A DNA stretch of 64,000 nucleotides from an uncultured Gammaproteobacteria bacterium (lineage in GTDB: Bacteria > Patescibacteriota > Microgenomatia > CAZETR01 > Amesbacteraceae): NCBI GenBank assembly GCA_964358085.1, contig CAYHNU010000001.1, positions 11,220 to 75,219 on the forward strand, given 5' to 3'. Below are positions 1,251-30,099 of this stretch, piece after piece (position 1 is the first letter of the stretch; every line of letters starts with the position of its first letter). The notes under the pieces were generated by a model. It was not told the DNA's origin, searched no databases, and saw only the letters and a program-made list of their open reading frames with translations. Made by a program: the position numbers and the translations under genes.

Positions 1251-1783
1251 TTTTAGCCGCTCTCGTCTTGGCTTCCTTGGCCAGCCGCAACCGGTTGGAT
1301 ACCGAAGTCTCCGGCAGTTCTTACTTACCACTCGTTGAAACCCGCCCCATCACTTTCACCCCCATCCATTCGGGTCTAAATATCATCCTTCTTCGCATGA
1401 AGAATCCGAACCTGGCGGACACGTCCGATTTTGTTTTTACACTTAAAGACCAAGCTAACCAGACAGTCCGGGAGCTTAATTTTTCCGGCCGCAACATCGG
1501 TGATCCCAGCGACGTCCGTTTGCAGTTTACCCCCATTCTGGATTCCGCTAATCAACCCCTGACTCTGACCATCATCTCTCCATCTACCTCCGTAAAAATC
1601 GAAAACGGTTTTCGTGCTTACTACCGCACTTCCGGTCTGTCACTTAATTTGGCCCCGCTTACCCGTGATCCTGTCTTTATGGTCGTGTGGGCGTTGCTTG
1701 TATTCGGGCTGACTCGTATCCCTGCGGATCCCAAGTCTTCCCCAAAGTTGCCTCTTCCGGCAAACTGTACACGCCGCCGATAA
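1208..1783 (+). CDS. Hypothetical membrane-anchored exported protein
   Basis: 191-aa ORF with N-terminal hydrophobic anchor 'VFFLGPVIVLAALVLASLA' followed by a soluble Ser/Thr/Pro-rich domain. Its 3' end overlaps the convergent gene 1677..3065 by about 107 bp, so it could be spurious. Confidence 0.3.
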   Translation: MDQLMRVFFLGPVIVLAALVLASLASRNRLDTEVSGSSYLPLVETRPITFTPIHSGLNIILLRMKNPNLADTSDFVFTLKDQANQTVRELNFSGRNIGDPSDVRLQFTPILDSANQPLTLTIISPSTSVKIENGFRAYYRTSGLSLNLAPLTRDPVFMVVWALLVFGLTRIPADPKSSPKLPLPANCTRRR

Positions 1784-4267: not shown

Positions 4268-4270
4268 CAA

Positions 4271-4300
4271 TTGATATTAAGCTCACGGACCTCGTATAAT
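4271..4300 (+). promoter_or_regulatory. Candidate sigma70-like promoter (TTGATA - 18 bp - TATAAT) in the divergent gap, driving the long plus-strand operon
   Basis: ttgata at 4271-4276 and tataat at 4295-4300, with an 18-bp spacer. ATG of the downstream gene at 4310. Confidence 0.3.
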
Positions 4301-4309
4301 CAAGTCTAC

Positions 4310-12005: not shown

Positions 12006-12006
12006 C

Positions 12007-12843: not shown

Positions 12844-13619
12844 AAAAAATAAAACTCTCCGTAGTTCTGGCCACTCACAACGAGGAGGCCAATATTGTGA
12901 GATGTCTTGAGTCGGTCAAAAACATCGCCGACGAGATAGTTATCGCTGACGAACAATCTTCGGATAAAACAGTGAAGATTGCCAAAAAATTTGCAGCCAA
13001 AGTTATCTCTGTCCCACATAACGATAACTTTCATATCACTAAAAATATCGCTATTGCGTCAGCAACAGGGGACTGGATTCTCCAACTGGATGCCGACGAA
13101 GTCGTCTCCCCCGAACTGGCCCGGGAAATCCAATCCCACCTGAAAGGTGGCCGGAAGGACTCCTTTCAGGTGAACGGCTATTGGATGAACAGAAAAAATT
13201 GGTTTTTAAATCGGTTCTTAACCAAAGGCGGTCAATACCCGGATCCCACTCTCCGCTTCTACCGCCGGGGACTAGGACACCTTCCGGCCGCAAATGTCCA
13301 CGAACAAGCTACCGTCAATGGACCGGTCGGCCGCCTCAAGCACGATTTACTTCACTATCACCACACCACCTTTTCTAAATACATGGATGGATTCAACCGC
13401 TATTCTTCTTTCGCCGCTTCTCAAATGCAAGCTCGTCATGAACCCCTTAATCTACTTAATGCACTTAATCACTTAATCCCTCTCCCCCTATTTACTTTTC
13501 TGAATATCTATTTCCGTCATCTAGGTATGGTTGATGGATATTCCGGATTTGTTTTTGCCCTCTTTTCCGGCCTCACCCATGCCGTTGCCTACATTAAATA
13601 CTGGCAAAGGTCATTATGA
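12840..13619 (+). CDS. GT2 glycosyltransferase, polyprenyl-phosphate sugar synthase-like (ArnC/GtrB-like, C-terminal TM helices)
   Basis: 'KLSVVLATHNEEANIVRCLESV', 'QLDADE' DxD-type motif, C-terminal hydrophobic pair 'LIPLPLFTFLNIYF...FVFALFSGLTHAVAYI'. Confidence 0.6.
   Translation: MKKIKLSVVLATHNEEANIVRCLESVKNIADEIVIADEQSSDKTVKIAKKFAAKVISVPHNDNFHITKNIAIASATGDWILQLDADEVVSPELAREIQSHLKGGRKDSFQVNGYWMNRKNWFLNRFLTKGGQYPDPTLRFYRRGLGHLPAANVHEQATVNGPVGRLKHDLLHYHHTTFSKYMDGFNRYSSFAASQMQARHEPLNLLNALNHLIPLPLFTFLNIYFRHLGMVDGYSGFVFALFSGLTHAVAYIKYWQRSL
13446..13477. repeat. Intragenic tandem repeat (cttaatNNN)x4 in the GT2 gene (encodes LNLLNALNHL)
   Basis: cttaat recurs at 13446, 13455, 13464 and 13472. 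Confidence 0.6.
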
Positions 13620-14605
13620 TCAAAGTCGGTTTTATTACATCTCCCCTGCACGACGCCAATGCTGCCCGCGGCGTCGGCTCCTACACCCGCCGCCTCCTAG
13701 AAAGACTCAAAGTTCAAAGTTCAAGGTTCAATATTGAGATTTTAGAAATTAAAAATGACCATGAACTACAAACTATGAACTATGAACTCGTCCACTACCC
13801 ATACTTCGACTTATTTCGGCATACCTTGCCAATTTTTAATAAATCCAAAATTGTAGTCACCCTTCACGATGTGATACCGTTGGAATTTCCTGATCACTAC
13901 CCCCCCGGTCTCCGCGGCAGGCTTAATCTGCAGTTGCAAAAATTGGCCCTGGCCAACGTAGAACGTGTCATTACCGTTTCCTATGCTTCAGTACAAGCAA
14001 TACGAAAGTATCTGCTTGTACCTCACGCTAAACTCAAACTGGTTTACGAAGCCGCCGACCCCATGTTTAAAAAGATTTCTAAACCCAAAAACAAATATCA
14101 TCTGCCCAAAAAATTCGTTCTCTACGTCGGAGATGTGAATTGGAATAAAAATATACCCAATTTAGTTAAAGCTTGTGAACAAATAAATTACCCATTGGTA
14201 ATAGTGGGTAAACAAGCAACTGAAGTAGAAAAACTGGACCTAAACCACGCTGAACTGCGGCATTTACAAGGAGTAGATTGGTCGGCCGTTATCCGCTCGG
14301 GTTTTGTGGCAGACGAAGATTTGGTACATATCTACAATTTGGCCACCGTTTACTGCCAGCCGTCCTTATCCGAAGGCTTTGGCCTGCCTGTCGTGGAAGC
14401 CCTGGCCTGCGGCACCCCTGTAGCCTGCAGCAATACTTCATCCTTGCCGGAAATAGCGGAGGATAACGCCACATATTTCAATCCCTATGACGTCGATGAT
14501 ATGTCCCAAGCTATAATTAACGCTAAGCCTCCACAAAGCAAGCCAATGTTTTCATGGGAGGAAACTGCCAAATTGACTCTGATGGTTTATCGGGAAATAT
14601 TATGA
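13616..14605 (+). CDS. GT4 (GT-B fold) glycosyltransferase
   Basis: C-terminal 'QPSLSEGFGLPVVEALACGTPVACSNTSSLPEIAED' is the typical GT4 E-x7-E region. ATGA overlap at both ends. N-terminal region carries repeat insertions (13708-13785). Confidence 0.65.
   Translation: MIKVGFITSPLHDANAARGVGSYTRRLLERLKVQSSRFNIEILEIKNDHELQTMNYELVHYPYFDLFRHTLPIFNKSKIVVTLHDVIPLEFPDHYPPGLRGRLNLQLQKLALANVERVITVSYASVQAIRKYLLVPHAKLKLVYEAADPMFKKISKPKNKYHLPKKFVLYVGDVNWNKNIPNLVKACEQINYPLVIVGKQATEVEKLDLNHAELRHLQGVDWSAVIRSGFVADEDLVHIYNLATVYCQPSLSEGFGLPVVEALACGTPVACSNTSSLPEIAEDNATYFNPYDVDDMSQAIINAKPPQSKPMFSWEETAKLTLMVYREIL
13708..13785. repeat. Composite repeat block in the GT4 N-terminus: (caaagtt)x3, then tta gaa att aaa aat core, then cat gaa cta caa act atg aac tat gaa ctc
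   Basis: Direct read. Encodes KVQSSRFNIEILEIKNDHELQTMNYEL. Confidence 0.7.
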
Positions 14606-15714
14606 AGTTTACAGCAATTCTAAAATATTTTGTCCTCTGGCAGGCGGCAATAATCATTATGGCCATTGCCGCCCAATATTCTTCCCTGCCTTTGCGGGAG
14701 ACGTATTTAGGCAGCGGTACCCAAGGGTATATGGAGAAACCTTGGTTCTACTCCCGGGAGAACTTCGACGGAATGCACTACACGTACATCGCCCGCCGGG
14801 GCTATGGCTACTCCCAACAGGCCTTCTTCCCCCTTTATCCGGCCATCATGCGCCGCATCATGACTTTGCCGATTCTCAACAACGCTGTTCTTGCTGGGAT
14901 CCTAGTCTCGGTAGTATCTTTCTTAGCCGGACTATACCTTTTTACCAAGCTCGCTCTATTAGATTACTCTCCTACAGTGATCAAGTGGACTGTTTTAGCA
15001 CTTTTGTTTTTTCCCACCAGTTTCTTCTTCACCTCCATTTATACCGAAGGTCTGTTCTTTTTCCTGACCATCGCCGCCTTTTACTCCGCCCGCACCCGCC
15101 GCTGGTTGCTGGCAGGCATATTTGGGGCCTTGGCCAGCTACACCCGCTTCATCGGCATTTTTCTCCTTCCCGCACTTCTTATCGAATGGTGGCAGCAGGG
15201 CCGCCGCTTTAGGCACTTCTTGCCTCTTCTTTTGATTCCACTTGGCCTGGGAATTTACATGAATTATCTAAATAAGACAGTAGGGGATCCGTTGGCCTTT
15301 TTCCACGTCCAGGTCAATTTTGCCCAGTTAAGAAGCGAGAAACTGATTCTCCTCTACCAAGTCTTCTGGCGTTACGTAAAAATGCTCTTTACCGTTAACC
15401 GGTCTGACCCCCTGTATTTGACCATTATCCTGGAACTTGTCACCGGAGTAGCCTTTCTAGCCACCACTGTCTACTCTTTCATCAAGCACCGTCTATCCTA
15501 CGCCGTCTTCAACTTCCTAGCCTACCTCACTCCCACTCTTACCGGTAGCTTCACATCTTTGCCCCGTTACGTCCTCCTCTGTTTCCCGTCGTTCTTGCTT
15601 ATCGGCGAATTATCGTCCCGCTCTCCCTTGGCTCGCAAGATCATTTTCGGCACCTTCGCCCTGGCCTTCATTATTTTTCTCTCCCTCTTCGCCCGGGGAT
15701 ATTGGGTATCATAA
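14602..15714 (+). CDS. GT-C membrane mannosyltransferase candidate, PIG-V (GT76)-like
   Basis: Multi-TM. 'FDGMHYTYIARRGY' resembles the conserved WDxxHYLxIAxxGY motif of the PIG-V/Mannosyl_trans2 family. ATG at 14602 overlaps the upstream TGA. Confidence 0.45.
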   Translation: MKFTAILKYFVLWQAAIIIMAIAAQYSSLPLRETYLGSGTQGYMEKPWFYSRENFDGMHYTYIARRGYGYSQQAFFPLYPAIMRRIMTLPILNNAVLAGILVSVVSFLAGLYLFTKLALLDYSPTVIKWTVLALLFFPTSFFFTSIYTEGLFFFLTIAAFYSARTRRWLLAGIFGALASYTRFIGIFLLPALLIEWWQQGRRFRHFLPLLLIPLGLGIYMNYLNKTVGDPLAFFHVQVNFAQLRSEKLILLYQVFWRYVKMLFTVNRSDPLYLTIILELVTGVAFLATTVYSFIKHRLSYAVFNFLAYLTPTLTGSFTSLPRYVLLCFPSFLLIGELSSRSPLARKIIFGTFALAFIIFLSLFARGYWVS

Positions 15715-18208: not shown

Positions 18209-19212
18209 ATTTTCCCGGAGTTAGCATCATTATTCCGGTTTTAAATAACGAACGTACTATCAAAAAGTGCTTGGAAGGTATTACGCTTCAAGATTATCCT
18301 AAAAACAAAGTCGAGGTCCTGATTCTTGATGGGGGAAGCACTGACAAAACCATAGCAATCGCAAAATCTTTTAGAAGCATAAACCTCCACATTGTAAAGG
18401 GTGGTTATCGCAACAATATGGAGGCCAGGAGATCTATAGGCTTCCGAAAAGCAAAGTACAATTTAGTATTGGTTTTGGATTCGGACAATTACTTATACAG
18501 TTCAGATAGTCTTCGAAAGTTAGTCAAGCCCATGCTCGGCGAGGATCATCTGATTGGGTCATTCACTCTTCACTACCACTATGATTCCCAATTGCCGTTT
18601 TTTACTAGATATATATCTTTATTTGGCAACCATGATCCCGTTGCCTATTATCTACACAAAGCTGATCGGCAAAAAATTACTCAAAAAACTTGGCCACACA
18701 AAAACCAAATTGTGTCTACAAAACCGGAATGGACTGTCGTCCAATTTAATAAACAAAATTTCCCAACCCTCGGCAGCAACGGGTTTCTCATAAACAAGAA
18801 ATATCTGCGCTTAAAAAATCTTAAACCGGAGAATTTTTTACATACTGATATTCTCTATGATCTTCTCGATAGGGGGTTAAATAAATATGCGGTGGTTGAT
18901 GCTCAAGTTGTTCACGATAGCAGTTCCAGCATTAAACGACATTTAGAAAAAAGGTATGAATATATGCAACTTCACCATATTTCTCTGGCTAAAATAAGGC
19001 GCTATAAAGTCTTCGATTCCAACTCGCCTCAGGATCGTTTCCATCTTACCAAATTTATTTTTTATACCATTACTATTGTCAAGCCTCTCCATGAATCAAT
19101 CGAGGGATTCTTCAAAAAACCCGACCTCGCCTGGTTTATTCACCCCTTTTTGTGCTGGGCATTTTTAATCACTTATTCATTTGCAGTAGTCAATCCTCAC
19201 AAAAAAAGATGA
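18190..19212 (+). CDS. GT2 glycosyltransferase with C-terminal membrane segment
   Basis: 'VSIIIPVLNNERTI', 'LDGGSTDKT', 'LDSDN'. C-terminal hydrophobic 'WFIHPFLCWAFLITYSFAVV'. Confidence 0.6.
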   Translation: MDQKDINFPGVSIIIPVLNNERTIKKCLEGITLQDYPKNKVEVLILDGGSTDKTIAIAKSFRSINLHIVKGGYRNNMEARRSIGFRKAKYNLVLVLDSDNYLYSSDSLRKLVKPMLGEDHLIGSFTLHYHYDSQLPFFTRYISLFGNHDPVAYYLHKADRQKITQKTWPHKNQIVSTKPEWTVVQFNKQNFPTLGSNGFLINKKYLRLKNLKPENFLHTDILYDLLDRGLNKYAVVDAQVVHDSSSSIKRHLEKRYEYMQLHHISLAKIRRYKVFDSNSPQDRFHLTKFIFYTITIVKPLHESIEGFFKKPDLAWFIHPFLCWAFLITYSFAVVNPHKKR

Positions 19213-20324
19213 ACATATTAATTCTGAATTGGAAGGACCTTAAGCATCCACAAGTAGGGGGAGCTGAAATCATAGTTTACGAATTGGCAAAGAGGCTGGT
19301 ATCGATGGGACATGAAGTAACATGGTTTTGTAGAATCTTCAAGTATGGAAAGCCAGAAGAAATCATCAACGGAATTAAAGTTGTAAGAAGAGGTAATTTA
19401 ATAACCATGTATCTTCACGCGCCGGTATACTATTGGAAACTTCAGAAAAAACCAGACGTGGTAGTAGACATATCTAATACCATATATTGGCAAACCCCTT
19501 TATGGGCTTGGAAATCCGAAAAAATTGCTTATCTTAATCAATTGGCACAAGAAGTTTTTTATTACGAGTATCCAATCTTGATATCTCGATTTGGTAAGTT
19601 AATAGAAAAACTTCAGTATTTAGTATATTTAAATACAAAGTTTGTTTGTTACGCCCAGAGTACAAAAACAGACTTGATATCAATGGGAATAAACAATTCC
19701 AAAATAAGCGTATTCTCATTGGGAGTTGATCACGATAGATACTTTCCCGGTAAAAAGTCAAAAACTCCATTATTTATATGCGTTAACCGACTGGTGAAGA
19801 TGAAAAGAACCGATTTGGCTATCAGAGCTATGGGTGAAGTTTGTAAAAACTTTCCCAAAGCCAGATTAGTAATCGTAGGATATGGTTACGATAGAATAAG
19901 GCTTGAGAAATTAAGAGACAGTTTAGGTCTGGAAGACTCAGTGAGATTTGCGGATGAAAACATTTTGTTTTTCACCAAAAACTCAAACGACAAAAAAGTT
20001 TCACTTATGCAACAAGCTTGGGCATTAGTTTTTCCTTCAGTCAAAGAGGGATGGGGGATGACAGTTACTGAAAGTGCTGCCTGTGGGACTCCGTCTATTG
20101 TAACCGACGTGACAGGCCTTAGAAATTCTGTACTTAAAAATGAAACAGGTTTGGTGGTATCCGCCAATCCAACAGTGGAAGAACTTTCGGAAGCTATGGA
20201 AAATATACTCTCTGATTCTAACTTAAGAAACCGGCTATCGAAAAACGCACTAAAATACGCACAGAAATTTACTTGGGACAAAAGTTGTCAGCAATTCCAA
20301 AAAATCATCACCCACACATCATGA
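19209..20324 (+). CDS. GT4 glycosyltransferase, member 1 of a tandem triplet
   Basis: 'MNILILNWKDLKHPQVGGAEI...', C-terminal 'FPSVKEGWGMTVTESAACGTPSIVTDVTG'. ATGA overlaps at both ends. Confidence 0.65.
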   Translation: MNILILNWKDLKHPQVGGAEIIVYELAKRLVSMGHEVTWFCRIFKYGKPEEIINGIKVVRRGNLITMYLHAPVYYWKLQKKPDVVVDISNTIYWQTPLWAWKSEKIAYLNQLAQEVFYYEYPILISRFGKLIEKLQYLVYLNTKFVCYAQSTKTDLISMGINNSKISVFSLGVDHDRYFPGKKSKTPLFICVNRLVKMKRTDLAIRAMGEVCKNFPKARLVIVGYGYDRIRLEKLRDSLGLEDSVRFADENILFFTKNSNDKKVSLMQQAWALVFPSVKEGWGMTVTESAACGTPSIVTDVTGLRNSVLKNETGLVVSANPTVEELSEAMENILSDSNLRNRLSKNALKYAQKFTWDKSCQQFQKIITHTS

Positions 20325-21451
20325 ATATCTTAATGCTTTCCTGGAGAGGACCAGGTCATCCCAACTCCGGTGGTGCAGAAATAAACACGCTTGAAAATGT
20401 CACTGCATGGACCAATGCCGGACACAGCGTTACCTGGTTCACCTCGACCTTTCCGGGGGCAATCCCTTTCGAAGTTGTTAATAAAGTGAAAATTGTTAGA
20501 CGCGGATCCCAAAATTTTAAAGTTAATTTAGCAGCATTTACTTGGTACCTCTCTGGATCCCATGAGAAATTTGACATCGTCGTTGATCAATTCCATGGAT
20601 TACCCTTCTTTACTCCTCTGTACGTTAAGGTTCCTAAACTTGCATTTATTCATGAAGTAGCCCGTGAGGTTTGGTGGTTAAACCCCTGGCCTAAACCGTT
20701 TAACCTCATTCCAGCTATAGTCGGCAGCTTTCTTGAGCCGTGGATATTTCGCATTCTTTACAAAAAGATTCCTTTTATGACAGTATCTAATTCAACCAAA
20801 GAAGATTTAATTAAATACGGAATTCCTGAAAAAAACATATCGGTATTTCTTAGCGGAGTTAATCTTTCTATTCCGTCTCCTTTACCAACCAAAAACAAGG
20901 TTCCAACGATTGTATTTTTAGGAGCATTATCTAAAGACAAGGGAATTGAAGACGCGTTACTCACCTTTTCTTTTATTAGTAAACTCCGTCCATCTTGGAA
21001 ATTCTGGGTGATAGGTAAGGGGGAAACTAACTATCAACTCTATTTAGACACTCTTTGTCAGAAACTGCAGGTAGACAAAAAGGTCAAGTTTTTGGGCCCG
21101 GTATATTCATTGAAGAAATTTAAGCTACTGTCACGGTCGCACATTTTGATTAATCCTTCGATCCGTGAGGGCTGGGGCCTGGTCAATATTGAAGCCAACG
21201 CCGTAGGAACTCCGGTAGTAGGATACTATGTTCCGGGTACTAAGGATTCAGTTCGTCATCAAGTTACCGGTCTCCTCTGTCCTCCACATCATCCGGAATT
21301 GCTGGCCAGAAATGCGATTCGGTTGATTGAAGACAAAAAATTATATAAACGACTTGTCTCCAATTCTCTGCGCTGGAGTAAACAATTTTCTTGGGACAAG
21401 TTTACTAAACAAAGCTTAACTCTTATTGAAAACCTAGCGGGCAAGAAATGA
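20321..21451 (+). CDS. GT4 glycosyltransferase, member 2 of a tandem triplet
   Basis: 'MNILMLSWRGPGHPNSGGAEI', 'NPSIREGWGLVNIEANAVGTPVVGYYVPG'. Confidence 0.65.
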   Translation: MNILMLSWRGPGHPNSGGAEINTLENVTAWTNAGHSVTWFTSTFPGAIPFEVVNKVKIVRRGSQNFKVNLAAFTWYLSGSHEKFDIVVDQFHGLPFFTPLYVKVPKLAFIHEVAREVWWLNPWPKPFNLIPAIVGSFLEPWIFRILYKKIPFMTVSNSTKEDLIKYGIPEKNISVFLSGVNLSIPSPLPTKNKVPTIVFLGALSKDKGIEDALLTFSFISKLRPSWKFWVIGKGETNYQLYLDTLCQKLQVDKKVKFLGPVYSLKKFKLLSRSHILINPSIREGWGLVNIEANAVGTPVVGYYVPGTKDSVRHQVTGLLCPPHHPELLARNAIRLIEDKKLYKRLVSNSLRWSKQFSWDKFTKQSLTLIENLAGKK

Positions 21452-22578
21452 ACATTCTTATGCTTTCCTGGCGCGGTCCCGGCCACCCCAACTATGGCGG
21501 AGCCGAGATCGTTTCACATGAACATGCCAAAGCCTGGGTAGCTGCTGGTCACCAAGTAACCTTATTCACCTCCTATTTTCCTGGCGTTCCTCAAGAAGAG
21601 TTTGTTGACGGGGTGAAAATAATTCGCAGTGGAAACCAACTAATTACGATTCAACTTGCGGCTATGTATTGGTATTTGTTTGGCCGCCATTCCAAATATG
21701 ATTTGGTTATTGATCAATTTCATGGTATCCCTTTTTTTACTCCGCTTTTTGTCAGAACCAAAAAATTGGCATTTATCCATGAAGTGGCTAAAGAAGTTTG
21801 GTGGATAAATCATTTACGCTTCCCCATTAATTACATATTTGGCACAGCCGGGTTTATTTCCGAACCCTTAATTTTTCGATTTTTTTATCGTCACATCCCT
21901 TTTTTTACCGTATCCCAGTCCACAAAACAAGATTTGATCAAGTGGTCCATCCCTGCTTCAAATATTCATATAATACCTAACGGAGTCACCACTTTACCTG
22001 CTAAATTTGCCAAAGAAAAAATCCCAACCGTGATTTTTTTAGGCGCTATCGCTCAAGATAAGGGAATTGAAGATACACTGTTTGCCTTTTCACACATTGT
22101 CAAACTACATCCCCAGTGGCGTTTATGGGTTGTTGGTAAGAGTGAACCGACCTATCAGGCTAAGCTGGATGAACTCGGCCTTCACTTAGGAATTAATTCT
22201 CGGCTCAAATTCTGGGGCTTTGCGAATGAGCCAAAAAAATTCGAACTTTTATCCCGGGCCAATGTGATGCTTAACCCATCAGCCAGAGAAGGCTGGGGAT
22301 TAGTGAATATTGAAGCTAATTCCGTCGGCACACCCGTTGTCGCCTACGATGTTCCCGGTTGTCGTGACTCTATCCAAGACCAGATCACCGGATTTCTTTG
22401 TCCCAAAGGCGATATTTCCTGTCTTGCTAAAACCTGCGTCCGCCTTGTGAGTGATAATAAGTTGTATGAAAAAATGTCAGCTCAAGCAATAAAATGGTCT
22501 CAGCAATTTTCCTGGACCAAATCAACTTCTATTAGCCTCAAGCTTATTGAGACTTTACACACAACAAATCCGCGTTGA
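21448..22578 (+). CDS. GT4 glycosyltransferase, member 3 of a tandem triplet
   Basis: 'MNILMLSWRGPGHPNYGGAEI', 'NPSAREGWGLVNIEANSVGTPVVAYDVPG'. N-terminus nearly identical to member 2. Confidence 0.65.
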   Translation: MNILMLSWRGPGHPNYGGAEIVSHEHAKAWVAAGHQVTLFTSYFPGVPQEEFVDGVKIIRSGNQLITIQLAAMYWYLFGRHSKYDLVIDQFHGIPFFTPLFVRTKKLAFIHEVAKEVWWINHLRFPINYIFGTAGFISEPLIFRFFYRHIPFFTVSQSTKQDLIKWSIPASNIHIIPNGVTTLPAKFAKEKIPTVIFLGAIAQDKGIEDTLFAFSHIVKLHPQWRLWVVGKSEPTYQAKLDELGLHLGINSRLKFWGFANEPKKFELLSRANVMLNPSAREGWGLVNIEANSVGTPVVAYDVPGCRDSIQDQITGFLCPKGDISCLAKTCVRLVSDNKLYEKMSAQAIKWSQQFSWTKSTSISLKLIETLHTTNPR

Positions 22579-23404
22579 AGAGTGAATCCTGGGGGTAATC
22601 TATCAATATTTTTTGAATTGAAAGGGTAGACACTTTTTTGGTAATGTTATTGATTTCGAAAATTTTGAATTTACTCTTCTTAAGAAGATTTAGATACTCC
22701 CGACCAGAACTTCCACACAGGCGCAACCCTCTTGGCCAGAACTCGGTTAAAAGCTTCAGTTTTTTACTTTTCCTTATTATTTCTGATGCACCAGTTAAAG
22801 TTTTTGTCTCCGAGCCTTGAATGTCCATCTTAATGACATTAATTCTTTTCTCTTTATTTTTTAAAAAAGTGTCCAATTTGATTGTACCTATAGAAATAGA
22901 TACCCGATTGCCTTCTGGGTCATAAATACGTTGATCGCCGAAATTGTCTTCATTACTCAAAAAAAGTTTGGCAGTACCATCTCTATCCGACACGGCTTTG
23001 TTAATTAGTACTACGTTTTTATATCCATTTAACTCCACGTTTTTTTTAAGTAATTCGAAATTTTTGGGAAGTGGTTCAAACGCATATACCCTTCCTTTAT
23101 CCCCCACTTTTTTCGCGGCAATTAATGTGTAATACCCAATGTGTGCTCCTATATCAACGACAATGTCTCCCAAATTAATACTTTGTTTAAAAAGTTCCGT
23201 TTCAAATTCTTCCCATTTTCCACTCAACAATAACTCCAGTGAAATAACTCGGTCATCTTTATCAATATACATCCGGTGGCCATCGACTATTACTGATTCT
23301 GGTTTAAAAAAATTTATAATTCTGGAGGCGATGTTCTTAGTATGAGGATTTTCATAGATGGGGTGTACGATTTTCCATAAAATTCCTCTAAACATAAGTA
23401 CCAT
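22544..23404 (-). CDS. FkbM-family SAM-dependent methyltransferase
   Basis: 'VVDIGAHIGYYTLIAAKKVGDKGRVYAFEPLPKNF'. The 'FG(N/T)...D(I/V)(E/Q)G.E' tail 'KMDIQGSET' is typical of the Methyltransf_21/FkbM family. Confidence 0.6.
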   Translation of the reverse strand: MVLMFRGILWKIVHPIYENPHTKNIASRIINFFKPESVIVDGHRMYIDKDDRVISLELLLSGKWEEFETELFKQSINLGDIVVDIGAHIGYYTLIAAKKVGDKGRVYAFEPLPKNFELLKKNVELNGYKNVVLINKAVSDRDGTAKLFLSNEDNFGDQRIYDPEGNRVSISIGTIKLDTFLKNKEKRINVIKMDIQGSETKTLTGASEIIRKSKKLKLLTEFWPRGLRLCGSSGREYLNLLKKSKFKIFEINNITKKVSTLSIQKILIDYPQDSLFNADLLCVKSQ

Positions 23405-23453: not shown

Positions 23454-24431
23454 ATGGCAGTAGAAGCTCGAATTAATACAGTCTCTAATGGGGACACGGA
23501 GATTCTCGTCCCCCTGCACGGAGGTACCTATCAAGTGGTTTGGGAACGTTCTTGGGGGAGTGGTGTTTTTAATCCTTCCCCAAATCAATTTTCAGACTTT
23601 GCCCGAGGCATTAATTATGTAAAAGGGGGCGAGCACAAACTTCTTTTTGGTGTCACTCTTAACGGTGCCTGCCCGGCCGATTGTCTGGATTGCCCCTTCG
23701 GGCGCACAATTATGGCAAAACTTTATACCAGTCTAACTGACAAACAACTCACCCTAGCTCGTCCAATCAGCTCTTCAGAATTACAATCTGCTCTCGAGCG
23801 TGCAAAAGAAATAGCCATAAAGAATGGTATTCTAAGCCAAAACGAAGTGTTTGCAGCAGGAGCCCTTCTGGCGGGAGATCCTGGTTATAGCCCTCACATT
23901 CCCGACCTCATAGCCACGGTTAGCGGTTTTACTGGTTGTGAAGCCTGCCGTTGGTCTACGGTTGCGCCCGATACTGAAAACAATGTCTTGGGGGCTTTTA
24001 TAGAGGGAGCAACTCGAGCCAAGGAAGCCAACCCGACCCACACGCTCAGTTTTCAAGTCTCCCTTCATAGTACCGACCATCAGGAACGTATCAACCACAC
24101 GGGTGTTTCTCGTCTTCTGTCGATGCAAGAAATCTCAATGACATCTCAAAGAATCAGAAAAATTACTGGTAGAAAATTATCTCTTTCCTTTGTATTGCAT
24201 GAAGGATCTGTATTAGATCCACAAGTATTAAATGATAATTTCTCTCCTGACAACAACCTTATCTCTCTACGACCTATCTATTCTCGCATTACCAATCCCA
24301 TAAATCCGGACAGGTTGATAGAACTTTATTCAAAATTAAGAAGCGACAATTGGGATGTGGTTTATATGCCCCCAAGTCAAAGCTATACAGAAGGTGGGCG
24401 GCCAATTGAATTACACAACATGAGAAGCTAG
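23454..24431 (+). CDS. Hypothetical protein with CX3CX2C cysteine motif (possible divergent radical-SAM-like or metal-binding enzyme)
   Basis: 325 aa. 'GVTLNGACPADCLDCPFGR' = C-x3-C-x2-C, plus a later 'GCEACRW'. Visibly higher GC than flanking genes. Lone plus-strand gene between two minus-strand genes. Confidence 0.35.
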   Translation: MAVEARINTVSNGDTEILVPLHGGTYQVVWERSWGSGVFNPSPNQFSDFARGINYVKGGEHKLLFGVTLNGACPADCLDCPFGRTIMAKLYTSLTDKQLTLARPISSSELQSALERAKEIAIKNGILSQNEVFAAGALLAGDPGYSPHIPDLIATVSGFTGCEACRWSTVAPDTENNVLGAFIEGATRAKEANPTHTLSFQVSLHSTDHQERINHTGVSRLLSMQEISMTSQRIRKITGRKLSLSFVLHEGSVLDPQVLNDNFSPDNNLISLRPIYSRITNPINPDRLIELYSKLRSDNWDVVYMPPSQSYTEGGRPIELHNMRS

Positions 24432-25216
24432 GCGGGTGGATTGTAATAGCCCATTGCTGCCTTAATGGCCATTAAGAGGACATCAATTTTTTTTCTAAAT
24501 CCCACAATCTTAGTAGGGGTTTTGCCCTGCGGAGGGTAACATCGCACAACTGGAATCTCGACACTTCGTAGTCCCAATCGGTTGGCGCGAGCGGTCACAT
24601 AAAACAAAATTTCGTAATTGCTAAAAACATTTCTAAATAATTTCAACCTTGAATTAAGAAGTAATTTTCGGCTATGGGCCCGAAAACCATTACTTGTGTC
24701 CGTGTATATCTTACCAGCCGCTAAATTGAGAATTGGAGTGAACAAGTATCTGTTTGCAAATTTCCTTTCTAGCGGGGTATTGACCGCCCGGCCACCTTTT
24801 GCGTATCTGGATCCTTGAATATAATCAAAACCCTCATCTAGTTTTTTTATAAAACTCGAAATTGCTTCTACCCCATCTTTACCATTTCCATCCATCTGCA
24901 CTACCCCTCGATAACCATTTTTAAGCGCAAAGGTATAAGCCATCCGGTACTGCGCCCCCAATTTGCCCGGACCGGTTTTTACAAGCAAAGCTGTCACTCC
25001 TTGATTTTTCAAAAATTTCGGATCAGTCGAACCGTCAGTGCTACCTCCGTCGGCAATAATAATGTCCACCAACTTCGCATACTTCTTTACTTTTTGTAGT
25101 TGTTTCTTAAACTTATCTCCTTCATTAATAACAGGGATGACCAGACAATATTTGGTCTTTCTTTTCTTAAACTCGATCTTTTTAAAACTCGGCACCTCCC
25201 AATCCTTTTTCACCAC
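24428..25216 (-). CDS. GT2 polyprenyl-phosphate sugar synthase (DPM1/GtrB-like)
   Basis: 'YCLVIPVINEGDKF', 'IIADGGSTDGS', 'VVQMDGNG', 'GSRYAKGG'. 262 aa soluble. Divergently paired with the GtrA-like gene. Confidence 0.65.
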   Translation of the reverse strand: MVKKDWEVPSFKKIEFKKRKTKYCLVIPVINEGDKFKKQLQKVKKYAKLVDIIIADGGSTDGSTDPKFLKNQGVTALLVKTGPGKLGAQYRMAYTFALKNGYRGVVQMDGNGKDGVEAISSFIKKLDEGFDYIQGSRYAKGGRAVNTPLERKFANRYLFTPILNLAAGKIYTDTSNGFRAHSRKLLLNSRLKLFRNVFSNYEILFYVTARANRLGLRSVEIPVVRCYPPQGKTPTKIVGFRKKIDVLLMAIKAAMGYYNPPA

Positions 25217-25291
25217 TCAATTATACAGAAGAACTTACAACATCTGTATAATTGTCTTGTGGTACAAACTTTTATACAATTCGTGCGGTTT

Positions 25292-25648
25292 ATGTTTGTG
25301 GGCGGATTGGCAGTAGGGGTTGATTTTGTGGTTTATTTTGGGTTGTTATTTTTACTACCAGTTATTCCTATTTCTTTGGCCAAAGCTATATCTTACATCT
25401 GTGGAGCAACTGTTTCATTTATTGGCCACCGGTATTTTGTATTTGAAGCCCACGACCGCCACCCGCAGCATCAAATCCTGCCCTTCAGTGTTCTCTACAG
25501 CAGTTCTTTAGTAGCCAATAACTTAACCAACCTAGTTATTTTAAATCTGACGGGAGTAAAAATCTTGGCCTGGTTTGTGGCCATCTGCTTATCAACTACA
25601 ATAAATTATCTGGGCATGAAATTTGGGGTGTTCAGGAAAATTAATTAA
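25292..25648 (+). CDS. GtrA-family small membrane protein (polyprenyl-P-sugar flippase-like)
   Basis: 118 aa, 4 TM. 'FVRFMFVGGLAVGVDFVVYFGLL', 'GHRYFVFE'. 'KILAWFVAICLSTTINYLGMKFGVF' is typical of GtrA-like proteins. ATG at 25292. Confidence 0.6.
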   Translation: MFVGGLAVGVDFVVYFGLLFLLPVIPISLAKAISYICGATVSFIGHRYFVFEAHDRHPQHQILPFSVLYSSSLVANNLTNLVILNLTGVKILAWFVAICLSTTINYLGMKFGVFRKIN

Positions 25649-25692: not shown

Positions 25693-26733
25693 ATGAAAGT
25701 TTTAGTGACAGGTGGAGCGGGATTTGCAGGAAGTCATGTTTGTGAGTATTACAAAAACGCCGGAGCAAAAGTTATTGCTTATGACAGCTTAACTAAATTT
25801 GAACTGCGTCGTACTGGATATTCTACAGAAAAAGCTCGATTTCATAATGTAGACTTTCTAAAAAAGATAGGTATTGATGTTGTTAAAGAAGACATTCGGG
25901 ACCGGGAGACACTGGAGTCATACGCAAAAAAAGCTGATTTTATTATTCATACAGCCGCCCAACCAGCGATGACTATTTCTTGGGAAGATCCGGAATTGGA
26001 TTTCACCACCAACGTCGTGGGGTCATTTAATGTACTAGAAATTGCACGTAAATATAAAATACCTACAGTATCTTGTGCGACCATTCACATTTATGGCAAC
26101 AAAATCAATGATGAGGTCAAAGAAGGGAAAACTCGCTATATCAGACGCCCAACAGAGATTGATGAAAATCATAGATTAGTTGAAGGATTGTTGACCCCAT
26201 TGCATGCTTCTAAACACACCCTAGACCTTTACACTCAAACTTACATCGATACATACAAACTCCCTTTGGCGTCTTTTAGACTCACAGGTCTGTATGGATC
26301 TCGTCAATTCGGTGGTGAAGATCATGGTTGGGTGGCCAATTTCGCCATTCGTTCCGTCATGGGTTATCCATTAACTATCTTTGGTACCGGCAAACAAGTG
26401 CGAGATATTTTGCATATTTCAGATCTTACCCGAGCTTTCGACGCTTTTTACAAAAAACAAAAAGCCGGAGTGTACAATATTGGCGGGGGAACTAAAACCA
26501 CTCTCTCACTAATTGAATGTATCCATTTGATTGAAAAAATATTGGGCAAGAAATCTAAAATTAAATACCAGCCTTCGCGGATGGGGGACTTGGTATATTT
26601 TGTTTGTAACACGACCAAAGCCCAGAAAAATCTAGGCTGGTCTGCCAAAGTTACTCCGGATAAAGGTGTTAGGGAACTAGTTAATTGGGTTCAAGAAAAT
26701 AAACATCTTTTCGAGATCAAAGATGCAAAGTAG
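25693..26733 (+). CDS. NAD-dependent sugar-nucleotide epimerase/dehydratase (extended SDR; CDP-paratose-epimerase/UDP-Glc-4-epimerase-like)
   Basis: 'MKVLVTGGAGFAGSH' Rossmann motif. 346 aa extended SDR length. Confidence 0.65.
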   Translation: MKVLVTGGAGFAGSHVCEYYKNAGAKVIAYDSLTKFELRRTGYSTEKARFHNVDFLKKIGIDVVKEDIRDRETLESYAKKADFIIHTAAQPAMTISWEDPELDFTTNVVGSFNVLEIARKYKIPTVSCATIHIYGNKINDEVKEGKTRYIRRPTEIDENHRLVEGLLTPLHASKHTLDLYTQTYIDTYKLPLASFRLTGLYGSRQFGGEDHGWVANFAIRSVMGYPLTIFGTGKQVRDILHISDLTRAFDAFYKKQKAGVYNIGGGTKTTLSLIECIHLIEKILGKKSKIKYQPSRMGDLVYFVCNTTKAQKNLGWSAKVTPDKGVRELVNWVQENKHLFEIKDAK

Positions 26734-27502
26734 TGTCAAGATCGGTGTCATTCCTGCCGCTGGATCTGGTAGACGACTGGGTTATCTATCGGGACTTCTT
26801 CCTAAAACCTTATTTCCTCTATACGACCGTCCTATCATTCATTACGTTGTAGATCAAATGCAGAAGGCGGGGATTGAAGACATTTACATTATTGTTAATG
26901 TTTACAAAGAAAAAGTCATAGAGTACTTCAAGCCAGTGCAAATGGATCTGAGATCCAATATTCATTTTATCGAGCAGAAGGAGTTAAATGGTACCGGGGA
27001 GTCCATTCTTTTAGCTGAAAAATATGTAAAAAAGGAACCTTTCATGGTCATATACGGTGACGATTGTACTATTACTGAGTCACTGGAGCCCATGATCAAT
27101 AATTTTTTAAAGACTAACGCTTCAGTAATGGAGGGTGTGGTCAAAGAGACGGATTTAGACATACTTCGACATACATGCTCTGTAAAAATGGCTAAAAATG
27201 GCAAAATGATCGAGATTATTGAAAAACCCGAATTCCCCCCTTACATGCTTAGGGGCTGTGGGGTTTACTTATTTAGACCCGATATTTTTTCTCAAATCAG
27301 ACAAACTCCAATTCATCCAATTCGTAAAGAAAGAGAAATTACATACACTATCAATAACCTTGCAAAACAAAATAAGGCATATGGGTTTCTAATAAATGGT
27401 TACAACATTAACATTAATGATTACGATGAATTACTTAAAGCCAGTCAGCTTCTAAAGGATAGTAAAAAGAATTCAAAAAAGGTTATTGAAGTTCTCTTCT
27501 AG
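26723..27502 (+). CDS. Sugar-1-phosphate nucleotidyltransferase
   Basis: 'IGVIPAAGSGRRLGYLSGLLPKTLFPLYDRPIIHYVV' is the G-x-G-x-R-L NTP_transferase signature. Confidence 0.6.
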   Translation: MQSSVKIGVIPAAGSGRRLGYLSGLLPKTLFPLYDRPIIHYVVDQMQKAGIEDIYIIVNVYKEKVIEYFKPVQMDLRSNIHFIEQKELNGTGESILLAEKYVKKEPFMVIYGDDCTITESLEPMINNFLKTNASVMEGVVKETDLDILRHTCSVKMAKNGKMIEIIEKPEFPPYMLRGCGVYLFRPDIFSQIRQTPIHPIRKEREITYTINNLAKQNKAYGFLINGYNININDYDELLKASQLLKDSKKNSKKVIEVLF

Positions 27503-27503
27503 A

Positions 27504-28346
27504 TTATCTTGGTCTCGAAAGATAAACCAATGGAGTATACAAGCCCCGAGACGCCAACCATTTTAGAAAACCACCCATCTTCAAGGTGCGAATAATCTTA
27601 GAAATAAATTGAATGTAAATACTACGACCGTAAATCTCGTTTGATGTCAACTGACGCGACCACTCTGGCAGACCTAAGTTTTCAAATTCAAATCCTTGTT
27701 TCCTTAAAGCTAACTCAACCGATTTATGTGTTACAAATCTTAGCTCGTCAAAAAACTTCTTATTAGTTCTTCCGGCAAGTTGGCAACACCACCATTTCCA
27801 TATGTCTGGACCGGGAGGGAAAAAGATATAAAAATGTGGTTCATAAGGAATATTATAATTCGGTGTTTCAATAAATAATCTTCCCTCTTTTTTGATTACT
27901 TTTCGCAACTTTCTTAAATAATCATTTAGGTCAGCGACATGCTCAACTGTTTCGAAAGAGGAAATAAAATCGAATTTCCCCTTTAATCTAAAGGCATCAG
28001 GAGTAGATTGAATTCTGGAGGGAGAAATATTATTTGCTCTCAGCATTTCTTTTGCAATATTTCGGGCAACGGGATCAATTTCGTATCCGTAATAATTATA
28101 TCCGGCCAAATTGGCTGCAGCCACAAGTGTGCCTATACCGCAACCGGCGTCCAAACAAATATTATTCTGTCTCACTCCAATCACTTTCAATCTTTTTATT
28201 TGTACAATTGCACTTTCCAATCTGTGTTTAGCAAAATCTGACATTGCGTACGATTTGGGAATAACTCCGCTATAAGTGGCTTCATAGTATTTGACAATTT
28301 TTTCCCACAGATACTGGGAAATTTTTACTTTATTAATTTTTAACAT
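27504..28346 (-). CDS. Class I SAM-dependent methyltransferase
   Basis: 'CLDAGCGIGTLVAAANLAGYNYYGYEIDP' (motif I). 280 aa. Confidence 0.6.
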   Translation of the reverse strand: MLKINKVKISQYLWEKIVKYYEATYSGVIPKSYAMSDFAKHRLESAIVQIKRLKVIGVRQNNICLDAGCGIGTLVAAANLAGYNYYGYEIDPVARNIAKEMLRANNISPSRIQSTPDAFRLKGKFDFISSFETVEHVADLNDYLRKLRKVIKKEGRLFIETPNYNIPYEPHFYIFFPPGPDIWKWWCCQLAGRTNKKFFDELRFVTHKSVELALRKQGFEFENLGLPEWSRQLTSNEIYGRSIYIQFISKIIRTLKMGGFLKWLASRGLYTPLVYLSRPR

Positions 28347-30099
28347 TTTTTAATTTTCTTAATAGTTCTCTTTTTTCATCAGTTACGTCTATTAAATTTC
28401 TACTTTGAAGTCTGTACACGTAGATGTTTTCTAATTTTACCGGAAAGTAGGGGCCTGGCATAAATCTCTTTAATGATTGTCCGTCCAAATACGCCGACTC
28501 CACCTCTAGCCAAATATTAGTAGCAGCGATATTGTACCAAGGAGCGAAATCAAATTGGAAGGATGCAATCACTGGAAACCCAAAAATAAAGGCATGTTGT
28601 AAAATTTCGGGATCATCTCCCTCAAAATAAAATACTAAAGGCTCTTTGGGGTTGCCAAAGTTCTTAGCCCGTTTGATTGAACCTCTTAATCGATCTGTAA
28701 GTTCAATTCCCCTAACTTCTGACAAGTGATATAGGTATCTATAGCTGGTTTTGGCGTGCAGGCTAAACAACAGTCCAAACATCATAATCAAAACTAACTT
28801 TCTTTTTAAATCTGTTTTAGTGGCCAGTGGTACAGCCATAAGCCAGGCAAGCCCGGCTCCTGAAACGATCAAATATCTACCGGTTATTTCATACAAAAAG
28901 CCAGGGTTGCGCAGCCAAGGCGCAATGAAGCCACCAATCATCATAAAAACGGACAGCACCAATATCAATCGCAAATTATTTTGCCCTTTTAGTTGGATCC
29001 ACCATAAAATTACCCAGATTAAGAAATATCCACCAATTAAATAGGTAAATAGTTCAAATGGTTCTACGGGTGAGGAAGTTTTTGCTATAAATTCTTGCCA
29101 CACATATGCAGTCCAGCCGCCACCCACGAGGAGTCCACTAACTAGTTCGATCCTTTTTGACTTAAAGAAAACCAGCCAGATTGCAAAGCCGGCAAAGACG
29201 GGAATAACCGCTCTTCTAAAAGTTCTAGGCAGTCCCCAATGCTCAAGCCTCTGGTACATAAAATCATTGGGTAAAATAATCTTGCCAAGTTGGCTTATGG
29301 GAGAAAGAAAGATTTTATAATTTTTTTCTTGGTAATGTTTGATGACTAAGCCGTAGTTTTTGATAAGAGCGGCCGTGCCGCGAGCACCGACTGCCCCCCC
29401 AATACTGGTATATTTTAGAATCGATGTAGTAAGAAGAATATATAATCCAATTCGAAAAACCGTTAGAACTGTTTTCTTCCAGTTGAAATTTGTTATCAGC
29501 CAGTATATTTCCAAACCAATCATCAGGGCTGGCAAAAACAGCATGCGGATAGGCTGGGAAATGATGGCAATTACAAATAGTAATGCCAAAATTGTCCATA
29601 TCCAAAGATTATTTTTAGAGCGGGTTATAGTAAAAACACCTAACAAGGTATTCATAACCGCAATGGCCGCGTAGGACGGCATGTTAAATGACCAGTCGGT
29701 TGTTTCCAGACCTGTCACTGTTATAGAAAAAAACGCTGCCGATCCCAGACTAGCCCATTTGTTTCTAGTCAATTTATATACTGGCCATAAAAAAGACAAC
29801 GATGCCGTAAGCCTTAATAAAAAAGAAAAAATATAATAAACCTTATGATTAAATCCAAAATAGTGGTGAATAGTAGCAGTCAACGTATCCATTGGTCCAT
29901 AGTCGCTAAAGAAAAATGACAAGTTGTTCAGTTTTTCACCCCCCCATCCATTTGTATAAAAATCGTATCTCCACAGGCCTAAATAGTCATCGCCAGTCAA
30001 AGCTAAATTAAAGCTAGGTAGTAGGGTGACAAAATATATGCCAAATAATAAGAAAATCCCCACGACCCAAAATTTATGCGTTTTCATAAACATCATCAT
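28333..30099 (-). CDS. Polytopic membrane protein, GT-C-like candidate (shares the GDD N-terminal loop with the giant membrane proteins)
   Basis: 588 aa, at least 12 hydrophobic segments. 'LALTGDDYLGLWRYDFY' near the first loop, comparable to 'GGDDMRLYYMYP' at 46224 and 'GGDDSRLFYLYP' at 48442. Confidence 0.45.
   Translation of the reverse strand: MMMFMKTHKFWVVGIFLLFGIYFVTLLPSFNLALTGDDYLGLWRYDFYTNGWGGEKLNNLSFFFSDYGPMDTLTATIHHYFGFNHKVYYIFSFLLRLTASLSFLWPVYKLTRNKWASLGSAAFFSITVTGLETTDWSFNMPSYAAIAVMNTLLGVFTITRSKNNLWIWTILALLFVIAIISQPIRMLFLPALMIGLEIYWLITNFNWKKTVLTVFRIGLYILLTTSILKYTSIGGAVGARGTAALIKNYGLVIKHYQEKNYKIFLSPISQLGKIILPNDFMYQRLEHWGLPRTFRRAVIPVFAGFAIWLVFFKSKRIELVSGLLVGGGWTAYVWQEFIAKTSSPVEPFELFTYLIGGYFLIWVILWWIQLKGQNNLRLILVLSVFMMIGGFIAPWLRNPGFLYEITGRYLIVSGAGLAWLMAVPLATKTDLKRKLVLIMMFGLLFSLHAKTSYRYLYHLSEVRGIELTDRLRGSIKRAKNFGNPKEPLVFYFEGDDPEILQHAFIFGFPVIASFQFDFAPWYNIAATNIWLEVESAYLDGQSLKRFMPGPYFPVKLENIYVYRLQSRNLIDVTDEKRELLRKLKNVKN

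Follow-up and report, generated by a model that had tools for sequence, protein, structure and literature searches.

The stretch of DNA analyzed here (the window) covers 64,000 nucleotides, positions 11,220 to 75,219 on the forward strand of contig CAYHNU010000001.1 (GenBank assembly GCA_964358085.1), from an uncultured bacterium placed in the Amesbacteraceae (Patescibacteriota; Microgenomatia). Our analysis concerns one gene at 23454..24431 on the plus strand, an ATG-to-stop open reading frame (ORF) for a 325-amino-acid (aa) protein whose predicted fold is that of RlmN and Cfr, two radical S-adenosylmethionine (SAM) enzymes. This protein, referred to below as the radical SAM-like protein, is predicted to be soluble, with 0 transmembrane (TM) segments, and its ORF includes NGACPADCLDCPFGR, in which three cysteines are spaced as C73-x3-C77-x2-C80.

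The segment CPADCLDC (23670..23693, plus strand), a predicted [4Fe-4S]/SAM cluster loop, aligns to C125/C129/C132 of RlmN. A preliminary description, made from the sequence alone, had pointed to the radical SAM spacing of this segment, and the observation holds. The CX3CX2C motif occurs in 1 of the 55 long ORFs of the whole window, in which cysteine makes up 0.72% of the residues, and its chance expectation is about 1.2e-4 per 325-aa protein. Every one of the 26 aligned homologs has C73, C77, and C80, even at 23% identity. Chance does not account for the motif. A second cysteine pair in GCEACRW had been listed as a further feature, and it fared worse. The cysteines of the window protein are at positions 73, 77, 80, 162, and 165, with none past 165; C162 is invariant within the close clade only, C165 is a serine in approximately half of that clade, neither is conserved in the wider family (26 sequences), and one family member (P0022) has three cysteines in total. 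In the predicted structure, C162 is found at the N-terminal end of strand 162-169 and, by inference from the model, would sit on the far side of the barrel relative to the cluster. The lack of conservation of C162 and C165 led us to reject GCEACRW as part of an auxiliary cluster or SPASM domain.

Homologs and predicted structure

Searches of Pfam (E ≤ 1), NCBIfam (E ≤ 10), and PDB sequences found no match to the radical SAM-like protein. The NCBIfam models for RlmN/Cfr (TIGR00048 and TIGR04432) returned nothing at E ≤ 10; neither SPASM nor Fer4_12 was matched in the Pfam search of the window protein, SPASM or twitch cysteines are absent, and no cobalamin-binding or HemN-like domain was detected (Pfam; 325-aa single-domain model). 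When the 26 members were scanned singly, PF04055 was the sole recurrent family, with sub-threshold matches in 9 of them, and P0038 alone passes its gathering score (29.5 bits). The remote sequences P0032, P0034, and P0038 match the RlmN/Cfr NCBIfam models at 33 to 47 bits, far under the cutoffs.

Comparison of the family profile with PDB sequences yielded only YydG and HydG, whose cluster loops were matched at a non-significant level. Aligned directly to Escherichia coli RlmN, the profile gave an hhalign E value of 1.7e-4 over 218 columns, and aligned to RlmN together with the remote matches as a bridge, it reached a probability of 99.9% (E value of 7e-34, 252 columns), a value that is partly circular because the bridging sequences had been found with the query; this bridging alignment was used for residue mapping only. 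Identity to RlmN and Cfr is approximately 12 to 16%.

A search of 5.8 billion clusters found 15 close homologs, all unnamed or annotated as "hypothetical," and those with a named source are Microgenomates and Amesbacteria metagenome-assembled genomes. With 1.84 billion representatives (50% identity) as the target, the search recovered 30 clusters at E ≤ 1e-3 and 13 at E ≤ 1e-30, and the gene is carried by 2 of 185,579 species-representative genomes. Most of the divergent members came from the search of representatives, while a second homolog search, with a wide alignment, contributed only P0028 and P0044.

The AlphaFold2 model, built from a 16-sequence alignment, has a predicted local distance difference test (pLDDT) score of 83.5 and a predicted template modeling (pTM) score of 0.87. 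Residues 1 to 57 form three strands and one short helix, followed by strand 58-65, a long loop with three cysteines, and an alternating helix/strand core that runs to strand 302-304; the tail (residues 309 to 325) is of low confidence, with pLDDT values of <50 for residues 309 to 318 and 323 to 325. The hallmarks of a radical SAM enzyme are recognizable: a partial or full (beta/alpha) TIM-barrel core in the predicted structure, CX3CX2C in the loop after beta-1, and, as judged from the sequence, the SAM-binding motifs (GGE and ribose/beta-4). Structure prediction, proposed earlier as a check, thus gave a radical SAM/RlmN-like fold in which a TIM-barrel core is combined with a GGE-like motif (G141-D142-P143). 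The nearest structures are RlmN and Cfr (PDB 3rfa, 5hr7, and 9p0p; RlmN-like 6fz6), with which the protein shares both the closest fold and the family motifs. Neither this family nor any cysteine-less enzyme of the RlmN-like kind came up in our literature search.

Residues retained and lost relative to RlmN and Cfr

The residues G141-D142-P143 (23874..23882, plus strand) align to "GEP" of RlmN (G179-E180-P181) and represent the equivalent of the radical SAM "GGE" motif; G141 is invariant, and D142 is found in at least 90% of the 26 aligned sequences. The segment Q201-V-S203-L-H205-S-T-D...R212 (24054..24089, plus strand) aligns to S233-L-H235...R242 of RlmN and is the equivalent of the RlmN/Cfr SAM-site motif "SLHA..de.R," AISLHAPNDEIR. 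Q201, S203, R212, and S168 are invariant across the 26 sequences, and the alignment equates "RWS168T" with "LSTS" and "ISLRP" with "INLIP" of RlmN. In Cfr, S212 and H214 of the SLH motif, together with S189, have been placed at the site of the SAM that gives rise to the radical (SAM1), and Cfr resistance is abolished by S212A, lowered considerably by S189A, and reduced moderately by H214A (PMC2836569). The invariant C73, C77, C80, G141, S168, S203, and R212 are the counterparts of residues at the cluster and SAM1 site in RlmN/Cfr, mutation of which inactivates Cfr, and their retention suggests that the radical SAM-like protein keeps a catalytically competent radical-generating site.

The determinants of class A methylation have a different fate. 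Two cysteines, C355 and C118 in RlmN or C338 and C105 in Cfr, are essential for this reaction (PMC12887959, PMC2836569). The resolving cysteine on beta-1 (RlmN C118/Cfr C105) has no equivalent in the radical SAM-like protein: RlmN C118 aligns to G66 in the bridging alignment or to L64 with the family profile, and both are invariant non-cysteine positions in the close clade. The flexible C-terminal tail, residues 309 to 325 or "..GGRPIELHNMRS" (24378..24428, plus strand), aligns to the "DIDAACGQL" region of RlmN and is cysteine-free. No counterpart of the C-terminal catalytic cysteine (RlmN C355/Cfr C338) is present in the GGRPIELHNMRS tail, and all 26 sequences are without cysteine there. Because both class A cysteines are absent, the methyl-cysteine mechanism of RlmN/Cfr is impossible. 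The helical N-terminal RNA-binding domain is likewise missing, since RlmN residues 1 to 109 have no aligned counterpart; the profile alignment begins at query residue 54 against RlmN residue 110, and RlmN residues 1 to approximately 95 are unmatched in alignment A3. Charge and isoelectric point (pI) were uninformative as a proxy for RNA binding (pI of 6.15 for the window protein, 6.56 for E. coli RlmN, and 5.5 to 8.6 for the family).

Two family-invariant residues, R273 and E319, have no counterpart in RlmN. E319 lies on the tail and is invariant in 26 of 26 sequences; R273 is at the end of a core strand, at a position where RlmN has an isoleucine ("NLIPWNP"). At least 90% of the sequences share Y292. 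By homology to RlmN, the three cysteines would converge on the cluster, and E319 and R273 would lie near the active site. Judged by the residues retained and lost, the radical SAM-like protein is built on an RlmN-like radical-generating platform, yet we do not class it with the RlmN/Cfr family.

Remote relatives differ in what they have kept. The "CGQ" cysteine is present in P0033, P0034, P0038, P0040, and P0042 and absent in P0031, P0032, P0036, and P0043. The "CGQ-only" proteins (the former five), which phmmer matched with the window protein at E values of 1e-4 to 1e-6, resemble the window family in overall length and in having "LQFSLHSTD..R" and "G[ED]P..N"; they retain the equivalent of C355 without that of C118, whereas the window family has neither. 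Two of them, P0038 and P0042, are RlmN/Cfr-type radical SAM proteins fused to a C-terminal isochorismatase domain and represent another uncharacterized class A offshoot.

Genomic neighborhood

The radical SAM-like gene diverges, across a 49-bp spacer, from a gene for an FkbM-family SAM methyltransferase (22544..23404, minus strand; PF05050, 76 bits; TIGR01444, 115 bits) and converges with a gene for a 262-aa protein similar to glycosyltransferase family 2 (GT2) (24428..25216, minus strand; PF00535, 28.3 bits), the 3′ ends of the two genes overlapping by 4 nucleotides (nt). The GT2-like protein resembles polyprenyl-phosphate glycosyltransferases, and its best NCBIfam matches are AglJ, dolichyl-phosphate hexose transferase, and ArnC, all far under cutoff. 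Its only PDB relatives are the dolichol-phosphate-mannose (DPM) synthase of Pyrococcus (5mlz; E value of 1.3e-4) and ArnC (about 1e-3), and its homologs are labeled "dolichol-phosphate mannosyltransferase" in some sources. A GtrA-family small membrane protein with 3 predicted TM segments, a proposed polyprenyl-phosphate-sugar flippase, is encoded at 25280..25648 (plus strand; start approximate; PF04138, 67.8 bits). Its listed ORF (25100-25648, plus strand) begins at a TTG and overlaps the divergent GT2 gene, at the 5′ end of the latter, by 117 nt. Translation probably begins close to 25280 instead, because the Pfam match begins at residue 63 and orthologs are 121 to 134 aa long.

Downstream, a short-chain dehydrogenase/reductase (SDR) of the extended type resembles CDP-tyvelose 2-epimerase (25693..26733, plus strand; PDB 9rl0, E value of 6e-51; 1orr, E value of 1.4e-41) with its catalytic tyrosine replaced ("TPLHASK"), the tyrosine of "sPYgcSK" falling on L170 in the alignment. 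The motif "[ST]PLHxSK," in which Leu-His stands in place of the catalytic tyrosine of YxxxK and the lysine is retained, does not vary among about 50 metagenome loci of 47 to 93% identity (L020 to L071). In loci that bear the radical SAM-like gene, the SDR orthologs are 78 to 93% identical with the motif invariant, far above the conservation of the radical SAM-like protein. This Tyr-less "PLHxSK" subfamily is widespread and linked, and represents a second unexplained enzyme of the module. The next gene (26723..27502, plus strand) encodes a sugar-1-phosphate nucleotidyltransferase of the glucose-1-phosphate UTP/dTTP type, with sub-cutoff NCBIfam matches to the Arch_glmU N-terminal, RmlA_long, and GalU models and with YngB and RmlA as PDB relatives; it is closest to glucose-1-phosphate uridylyl- and thymidylyltransferases. 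Across the related loci, such a gene comes after the SDR, usually directly.

Several other genes of the region were recorded. A conserved 562- to 588-aa protein, matched by neither Pfam nor NCBIfam and with approximately 8 TM segments, is encoded convergently with the nucleotidyltransferase in several loci (window, 588 aa, 28333-30099, minus strand; L001, 12850-14610; L014, 11614-13308; L015, 12954-14642), and could be a dedicated transferase or polymerase for the sugar of the module. Five tandem paralogous ORFs of about 500 to 530 aa (4271-12005, plus strand), each with 7 to 8 predicted TM segments, have PMT_2 matches, some of them weak (PMT or STT3 in one); by sequence, they resemble a series of GT-C-type glycosyltransferases for which polyprenyl-phosphate-sugars would be the donors. 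Three consecutive, overlapping paralogs of glycosyltransferase family 4 (GT4) (390, 392, and 376 aa; 19152-22578, plus strand) lie closer to the gene, the last two with a nearly identical N terminus (MNILMLSWRGPGHPN.GGAEI), and a GT4 pair or triplet is also found upstream of the radical SAM-like gene in related loci. Two adjacent ORFs at 46224-51630 (plus strand; 741 and 1,067 aa, with approximately 9 and 14 predicted TM segments) have the lowest GC content in the window (0.32 to 0.34).

Conserved synteny and optional presence

Synteny was examined in loci with homologs of 98% to 34% identity (the window, L001, L002 to L004, L005, L012, L013, L014, L010/L011, L015, L020, L031, and L038). The same opposite-strand GT2-like gene (257 to 272 aa) comes next in all 11 loci that reach past the 3′ end of the radical SAM-like gene, and the 3′ overlap measures 4 to 33 nt across these loci (34 to 98% identity). 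The SDR (344 to 348 aa) followed by the nucleotidyltransferase (255 to 259 aa) is located 1 to 3 kb away in the window, L001, L002, L005, L010, L014, and L015, the seven loci whose sequence extends to that distance. Both genes are also present in L020 and L031, and the SDR of L038 is found approximately 3.6 kb away, at the contig end. FkbM adjoins the radical SAM-like gene in most loci but is absent nearby in L014 and 7 kb off in L010, and GtrA is present in about half (the window, L001, L002, L015, L020, and L031) and missing from some others. GT4 genes and large polytopic membrane proteins make up the surroundings. Locus-specific genes were also seen: a 386-aa HD-domain protein (L010, 9713-10873) occupies the usual GtrA/FkbM place between GT2 and SDR, and a cupin-domain protein (L038, 2470-3207) follows GT2.

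The radical SAM-like gene is an optional part of the module. Over 6,000 members of the GT2 family are found in genomes of the Candidate Phyla Radiation (CPR), versus approximately 30 clusters for the radical SAM-like family, and a Blackburnbacteria locus (L018) has the GT2 without the radical SAM-like gene. A metagenome scan with the SDR yielded 64 loci; among those with at least 3.3 kb of upstream sequence, the gene is present in L020 and L038 only and absent from about 15, and L031, with shorter upstream sequence, is a further carrier. The GT4 and GT2 genes of L026 converge directly, with no radical SAM-like gene between them, while the SDR, GT2, and nucleotidyltransferase are 81%, 63%, and 70% identical, respectively; this arrangement equals that of the gene-bearing L014 minus that gene. 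No other part of the module evolves as fast as the radical SAM-like protein, which has 59% identity in L020 versus 73 to 91% for its partners, and 34% in L038 versus 61% and 80%. The gene had been described earlier as a lone plus-strand gene between minus-strand methyltransferase and GT2 genes; this is correct, with both position and orientation kept in relatives, and the gene fills a conserved, optional cassette slot instead of being newly inserted.

Base composition

The GC content of the radical SAM-like gene is 45.2%, compared to a mean of 40.4 ± 4.9% for the ORFs of the window (z = +0.97; rank 13 of 55), and its two flanking genes are both lower, at 34.8% and 41.3%. The preliminary description was right in calling the gene richer in GC than its flanks, but the claim of a distinct composition does not survive: the proposed profile of GC at third codon positions (GC3) proved ordinary and without foreign signal (38.3%; rank 30 of 55; z = −0.3). 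GC1 is 0.528, and GC2, at 0.445, is the top value in the window; the GC excess lies in codon positions 1 and 2 and therefore reflects the amino acid composition of a Gly/Ala/Pro/Arg-rich protein. Because GC3 is ordinary and synteny is conserved in relatives, there is no sign of recent foreign origin; foreign origin was rejected, and the earlier idea of a simple metal-binding protein acquired from elsewhere is unsupported. At a larger scale, GC3 changes in a step, with nearly all ORFs of the central glycan cluster (15715-55958) at 0.26 to 0.44 and those of the flanks (36-15714 and 55903-63331) mostly at 0.43 to 0.61. The compositionally distinct unit is the whole surface-glycan region, not the radical SAM-like gene alone.

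Proposed function and alternative explanations

The sequence data describe what appears to be a highly divergent enzyme of the RlmN/Cfr structural lineage, one that has neither the N-terminal RNA-binding domain nor either of the catalytic cysteines. It probably tailors a sugar and not RNA, because the methyl-transfer cysteines are absent and the gene resides in clusters for cell surface sugar chains; our favored reading is of a rare, optional radical enzyme of Microgenomates (CPR) that modifies a sugar linked to a nucleotide or to polyprenyl phosphate. We consider it reasonably likely that the protein is a catalytically active radical SAM enzyme acting on a glycan, while ketyl-type chemistry specifically is put forward tentatively and remains rather doubtful.

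We infer the sugar substrate, its carrier (nucleotide or lipid), the roles of E319 and R273, and the chemistry itself as follows. A hexose would first be activated by the nucleotidyltransferase and processed by the atypical SDR. The [4Fe-4S] cluster on CX3CX2C would bind SAM, reductive cleavage of which would generate a 5′-deoxyadenosyl radical, and this radical would take a hydrogen from a hexose carbon of a nucleoside diphosphate (NDP)-hexose or of a polyprenyl-phosphate-hexose, the latter being considered because of the linkage to GT2. A base would then deprotonate the alpha-hydroxyalkyl radical, with either loss of the neighboring hydroxyl (deoxygenation/dehydration) or net oxidation to a keto-sugar. 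FkbM could add an O-methyl group before or after the radical step, and the DPM-synthase/ArnC-like GT2 would load the sugar on polyprenyl phosphate, to be flipped by GtrA and installed by the GT-C enzymes.

Ketyl-type radical SAM chemistry (dehydration/deoxygenation or oxidation) is known from DesII, AprD4, viperin, and BtrN. It is favored here because the family offers no cysteine for hydrogen donation or methyl carriage and because Glu319 and Arg273 are invariant; an invariant tail carboxylate and an arginine would fit base-assisted ketyl chemistry on a phosphate-anchored sugar. Epimerization and RlmN-type methylation are disfavored because no thiol is available. The earlier suggestion of a glycan-modifying radical enzyme for C-methylation, epimerization, or deoxygenation is thus partly supported: C-methylation of the RlmN/Cfr type falls with the missing cysteines, epimerization is unlikely, and deoxygenation is among the favored reactions.

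Some observations weigh against this interpretation. The window protein has no PF04055 match at E ≤ 1, let alone at the gathering threshold, so that the HMM (hidden Markov model) search proposed earlier for PF04055 and SPASM was negative for it; the absent PF04055 match is a limit of HMM sensitivity and not a structural criterion. The third cluster cysteine is preceded by Asp or Gly, where an aromatic residue is usual. The basis for ketyl or deoxygenation chemistry consists solely of the absent cysteines and the invariant Glu and Arg. Finally, the most remote relatives are outside glycan loci, P0028 being in archaeal-type surroundings and P0029 adjoining an RsmE-like gene, and because of these two the glycan role is claimed only for the clade of at least 34% identity. 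The context of P0027 was too short, and the contexts of P0027, P0028, and P0029 were left out of the functional inference.

The kinship with RlmN and Cfr, which supply the nearest structures and the remote sequence relatives, also allows a reading in which the protein is still an RlmN/Cfr-type modifier of RNA or another nucleic acid, for example by a non-cysteine route, with an incidental glycan context. P0029, which adjoins an RsmE-like RNA methyltransferase gene and housekeeping genes, is consistent with it, but both cysteines essential to class A enzymes are absent (PMC2836569, PMC12887959), the first ~109 residues of RlmN, including the helical N-terminal domain, are unmatched, the convergent GT2-like gene is tightly linked in 11 of 11 loci over 34 to 98% identity, and the gene comes and goes within homologous clusters (L026), unlike a housekeeping RNA modifier. 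We regard this reading as highly improbable. A degenerate, non-catalytic Fe-S or metal-binding protein, serving as a scaffold or regulator and possibly foreign, would account for the lack of any HMM match to the window protein, for its rank as the fastest-evolving member of the module (34 to 59% identity versus 61 to 91% for GT2, SDR, and nucleotidyltransferase), and for its dispensability in some clusters (L026). Mere metal binding would, however, have no need of G141, D142, S168, S203, H205, and R212, which are conserved together with the cluster cysteines down to 23% identity, and the ordinary GC3 and conserved synteny argue against a foreign source; there is hardly any likelihood left for this explanation.

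Two other kinds of sugar chemistry would leave a catalytic enzyme in place. A radical SAM epimerase would invert one stereocenter of an NDP-sugar or polyprenyl-phosphate-sugar by hydrogen abstraction and re-donation. Auxiliary epimerases on lipid-linked sugars are known to diversify three-component glycosylation systems (PMC11127046). The partner SDR, without its catalytic tyrosine, may not epimerize alone, and a tyrosine could serve as the hydrogen donor, Y292 being present in at least 90% of the sequences. The family has no conserved cysteine outside the cluster, and all radical SAM epimerases known to us use a cysteine hydrogen donor, which makes an epimerase unlikely. A sugar C-methyltransferase would have to relay the methyl group other than through the methyl-cysteine of RlmN, with FkbM or a second SAM as its possible source. 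An argument for such an enzyme is its origin in the class A scaffold, on which two SAM molecules bind one after the other (PMC2836569). The FkbM methyltransferase adjoins the gene in most loci. C-methyl branched sugars do occur in bacterial glycans. Against it stand the lack of a conserved cysteine to carry the methyl group, the lack of a detectable cobalamin-binding or HemN-like domain, and the loci in which FkbM is absent near the gene (L014) or 7 kb off (L010), and no precedent for such a relay is known to us; a C-methyltransferase is thus a quite unlikely alternative to the favored ketyl-type tailoring of a sugar.

Comparison with known systems

RlmN and Cfr possess C118 and C355 or their equivalents, whereas the radical SAM-like protein has Gly66 or Leu64 and a cysteine-free tail with the invariant Glu319, and their housekeeping or resistance context contrasts with the glycan cluster of the radical SAM-like gene. 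DesII, AprD4, BtrN, viperin, and BlsE, in turn, are of the sugar-tailoring type without a cysteine donor or transfer of a methyl group, but they are clearly more distant in fold than RlmN/Cfr and have no detectable sequence relationship to the radical SAM-like protein. BtrN and AprD4 have an auxiliary cluster, which the radical SAM-like protein is without, and all five serve antibiotic or antiviral pathways, while the gene described here belongs to cell envelope clusters.

By analogy, the surrounding module resembles the logic of the GtrB/GtrA/GT-C and ArnC/ArnT three-component systems, in which a sugar would pass from its NDP form to polyprenyl phosphate, be flipped, and be installed outside the membrane. 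The likeness consists of the DPM-synthase/GtrB/ArnC-like GT2, the GtrA protein, and the PMT_2-type GT-C enzymes, as well as of an accessory gene for a modifying enzyme that only some clusters carry. The underlying matches are of unequal strength: that of GT2 is weak (E values of 1e-4 to 1e-3), GtrA scores 67.8 bits and is missing in some loci, and the PMT_2-type genes lie 11 to 19 kb upstream. Gain and loss of auxiliary enzymes on lipid-linked sugars diversify glycans in three-component systems (PMC11127046). The auxiliaries (DprE1/E2 and ORF13) are SDR or flavoenzyme epimerases or a deformylase, in contrast to the putative radical SAM enzyme of the present module; in the literature, we found no description of a radical SAM enzyme as an auxiliary of three-component glycosylation and no report of one in a GtrA/FkbM/GT2 module.

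Implications for CPR cell surfaces

The bare existence of one more radical SAM family is unremarkable, as it is of a known kind and unassigned families are common. The RlmN/Cfr scaffold, however, has hitherto been known only for RNA methylation and antibiotic resistance, and the radical SAM-like family represents a clean natural case of scaffold repurposing in which the class A residues were shed and the radical site was kept. The family carries this scaffold, minus the class A determinants, in envelope-glycan clusters of CPR bacteria, to which its close members are confined, and databases call its members hypothetical. There is a somewhat less than even chance that this cysteine-free enzyme uses radical SAM chemistry to edit a polyprenyl-phosphate- or NDP-linked hexose together with a Tyr-less SDR and a DPM-synthase-like GT2 and so makes a new rare sugar on the CPR surface. 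No protein of the RlmN/Cfr lineage would have been known before it to have a carbohydrate instead of RNA as its substrate, and three-component systems of the GtrB/GtrA/GT-C type would gain their first auxiliary modifier that is a radical SAM enzyme. CPR bacteria cannot be cultured alone, and their surface chemistry is almost unknown. The radical SAM-like gene comes and goes in homologous clusters, and gene content therefore predicts a defined glycan difference between strains.

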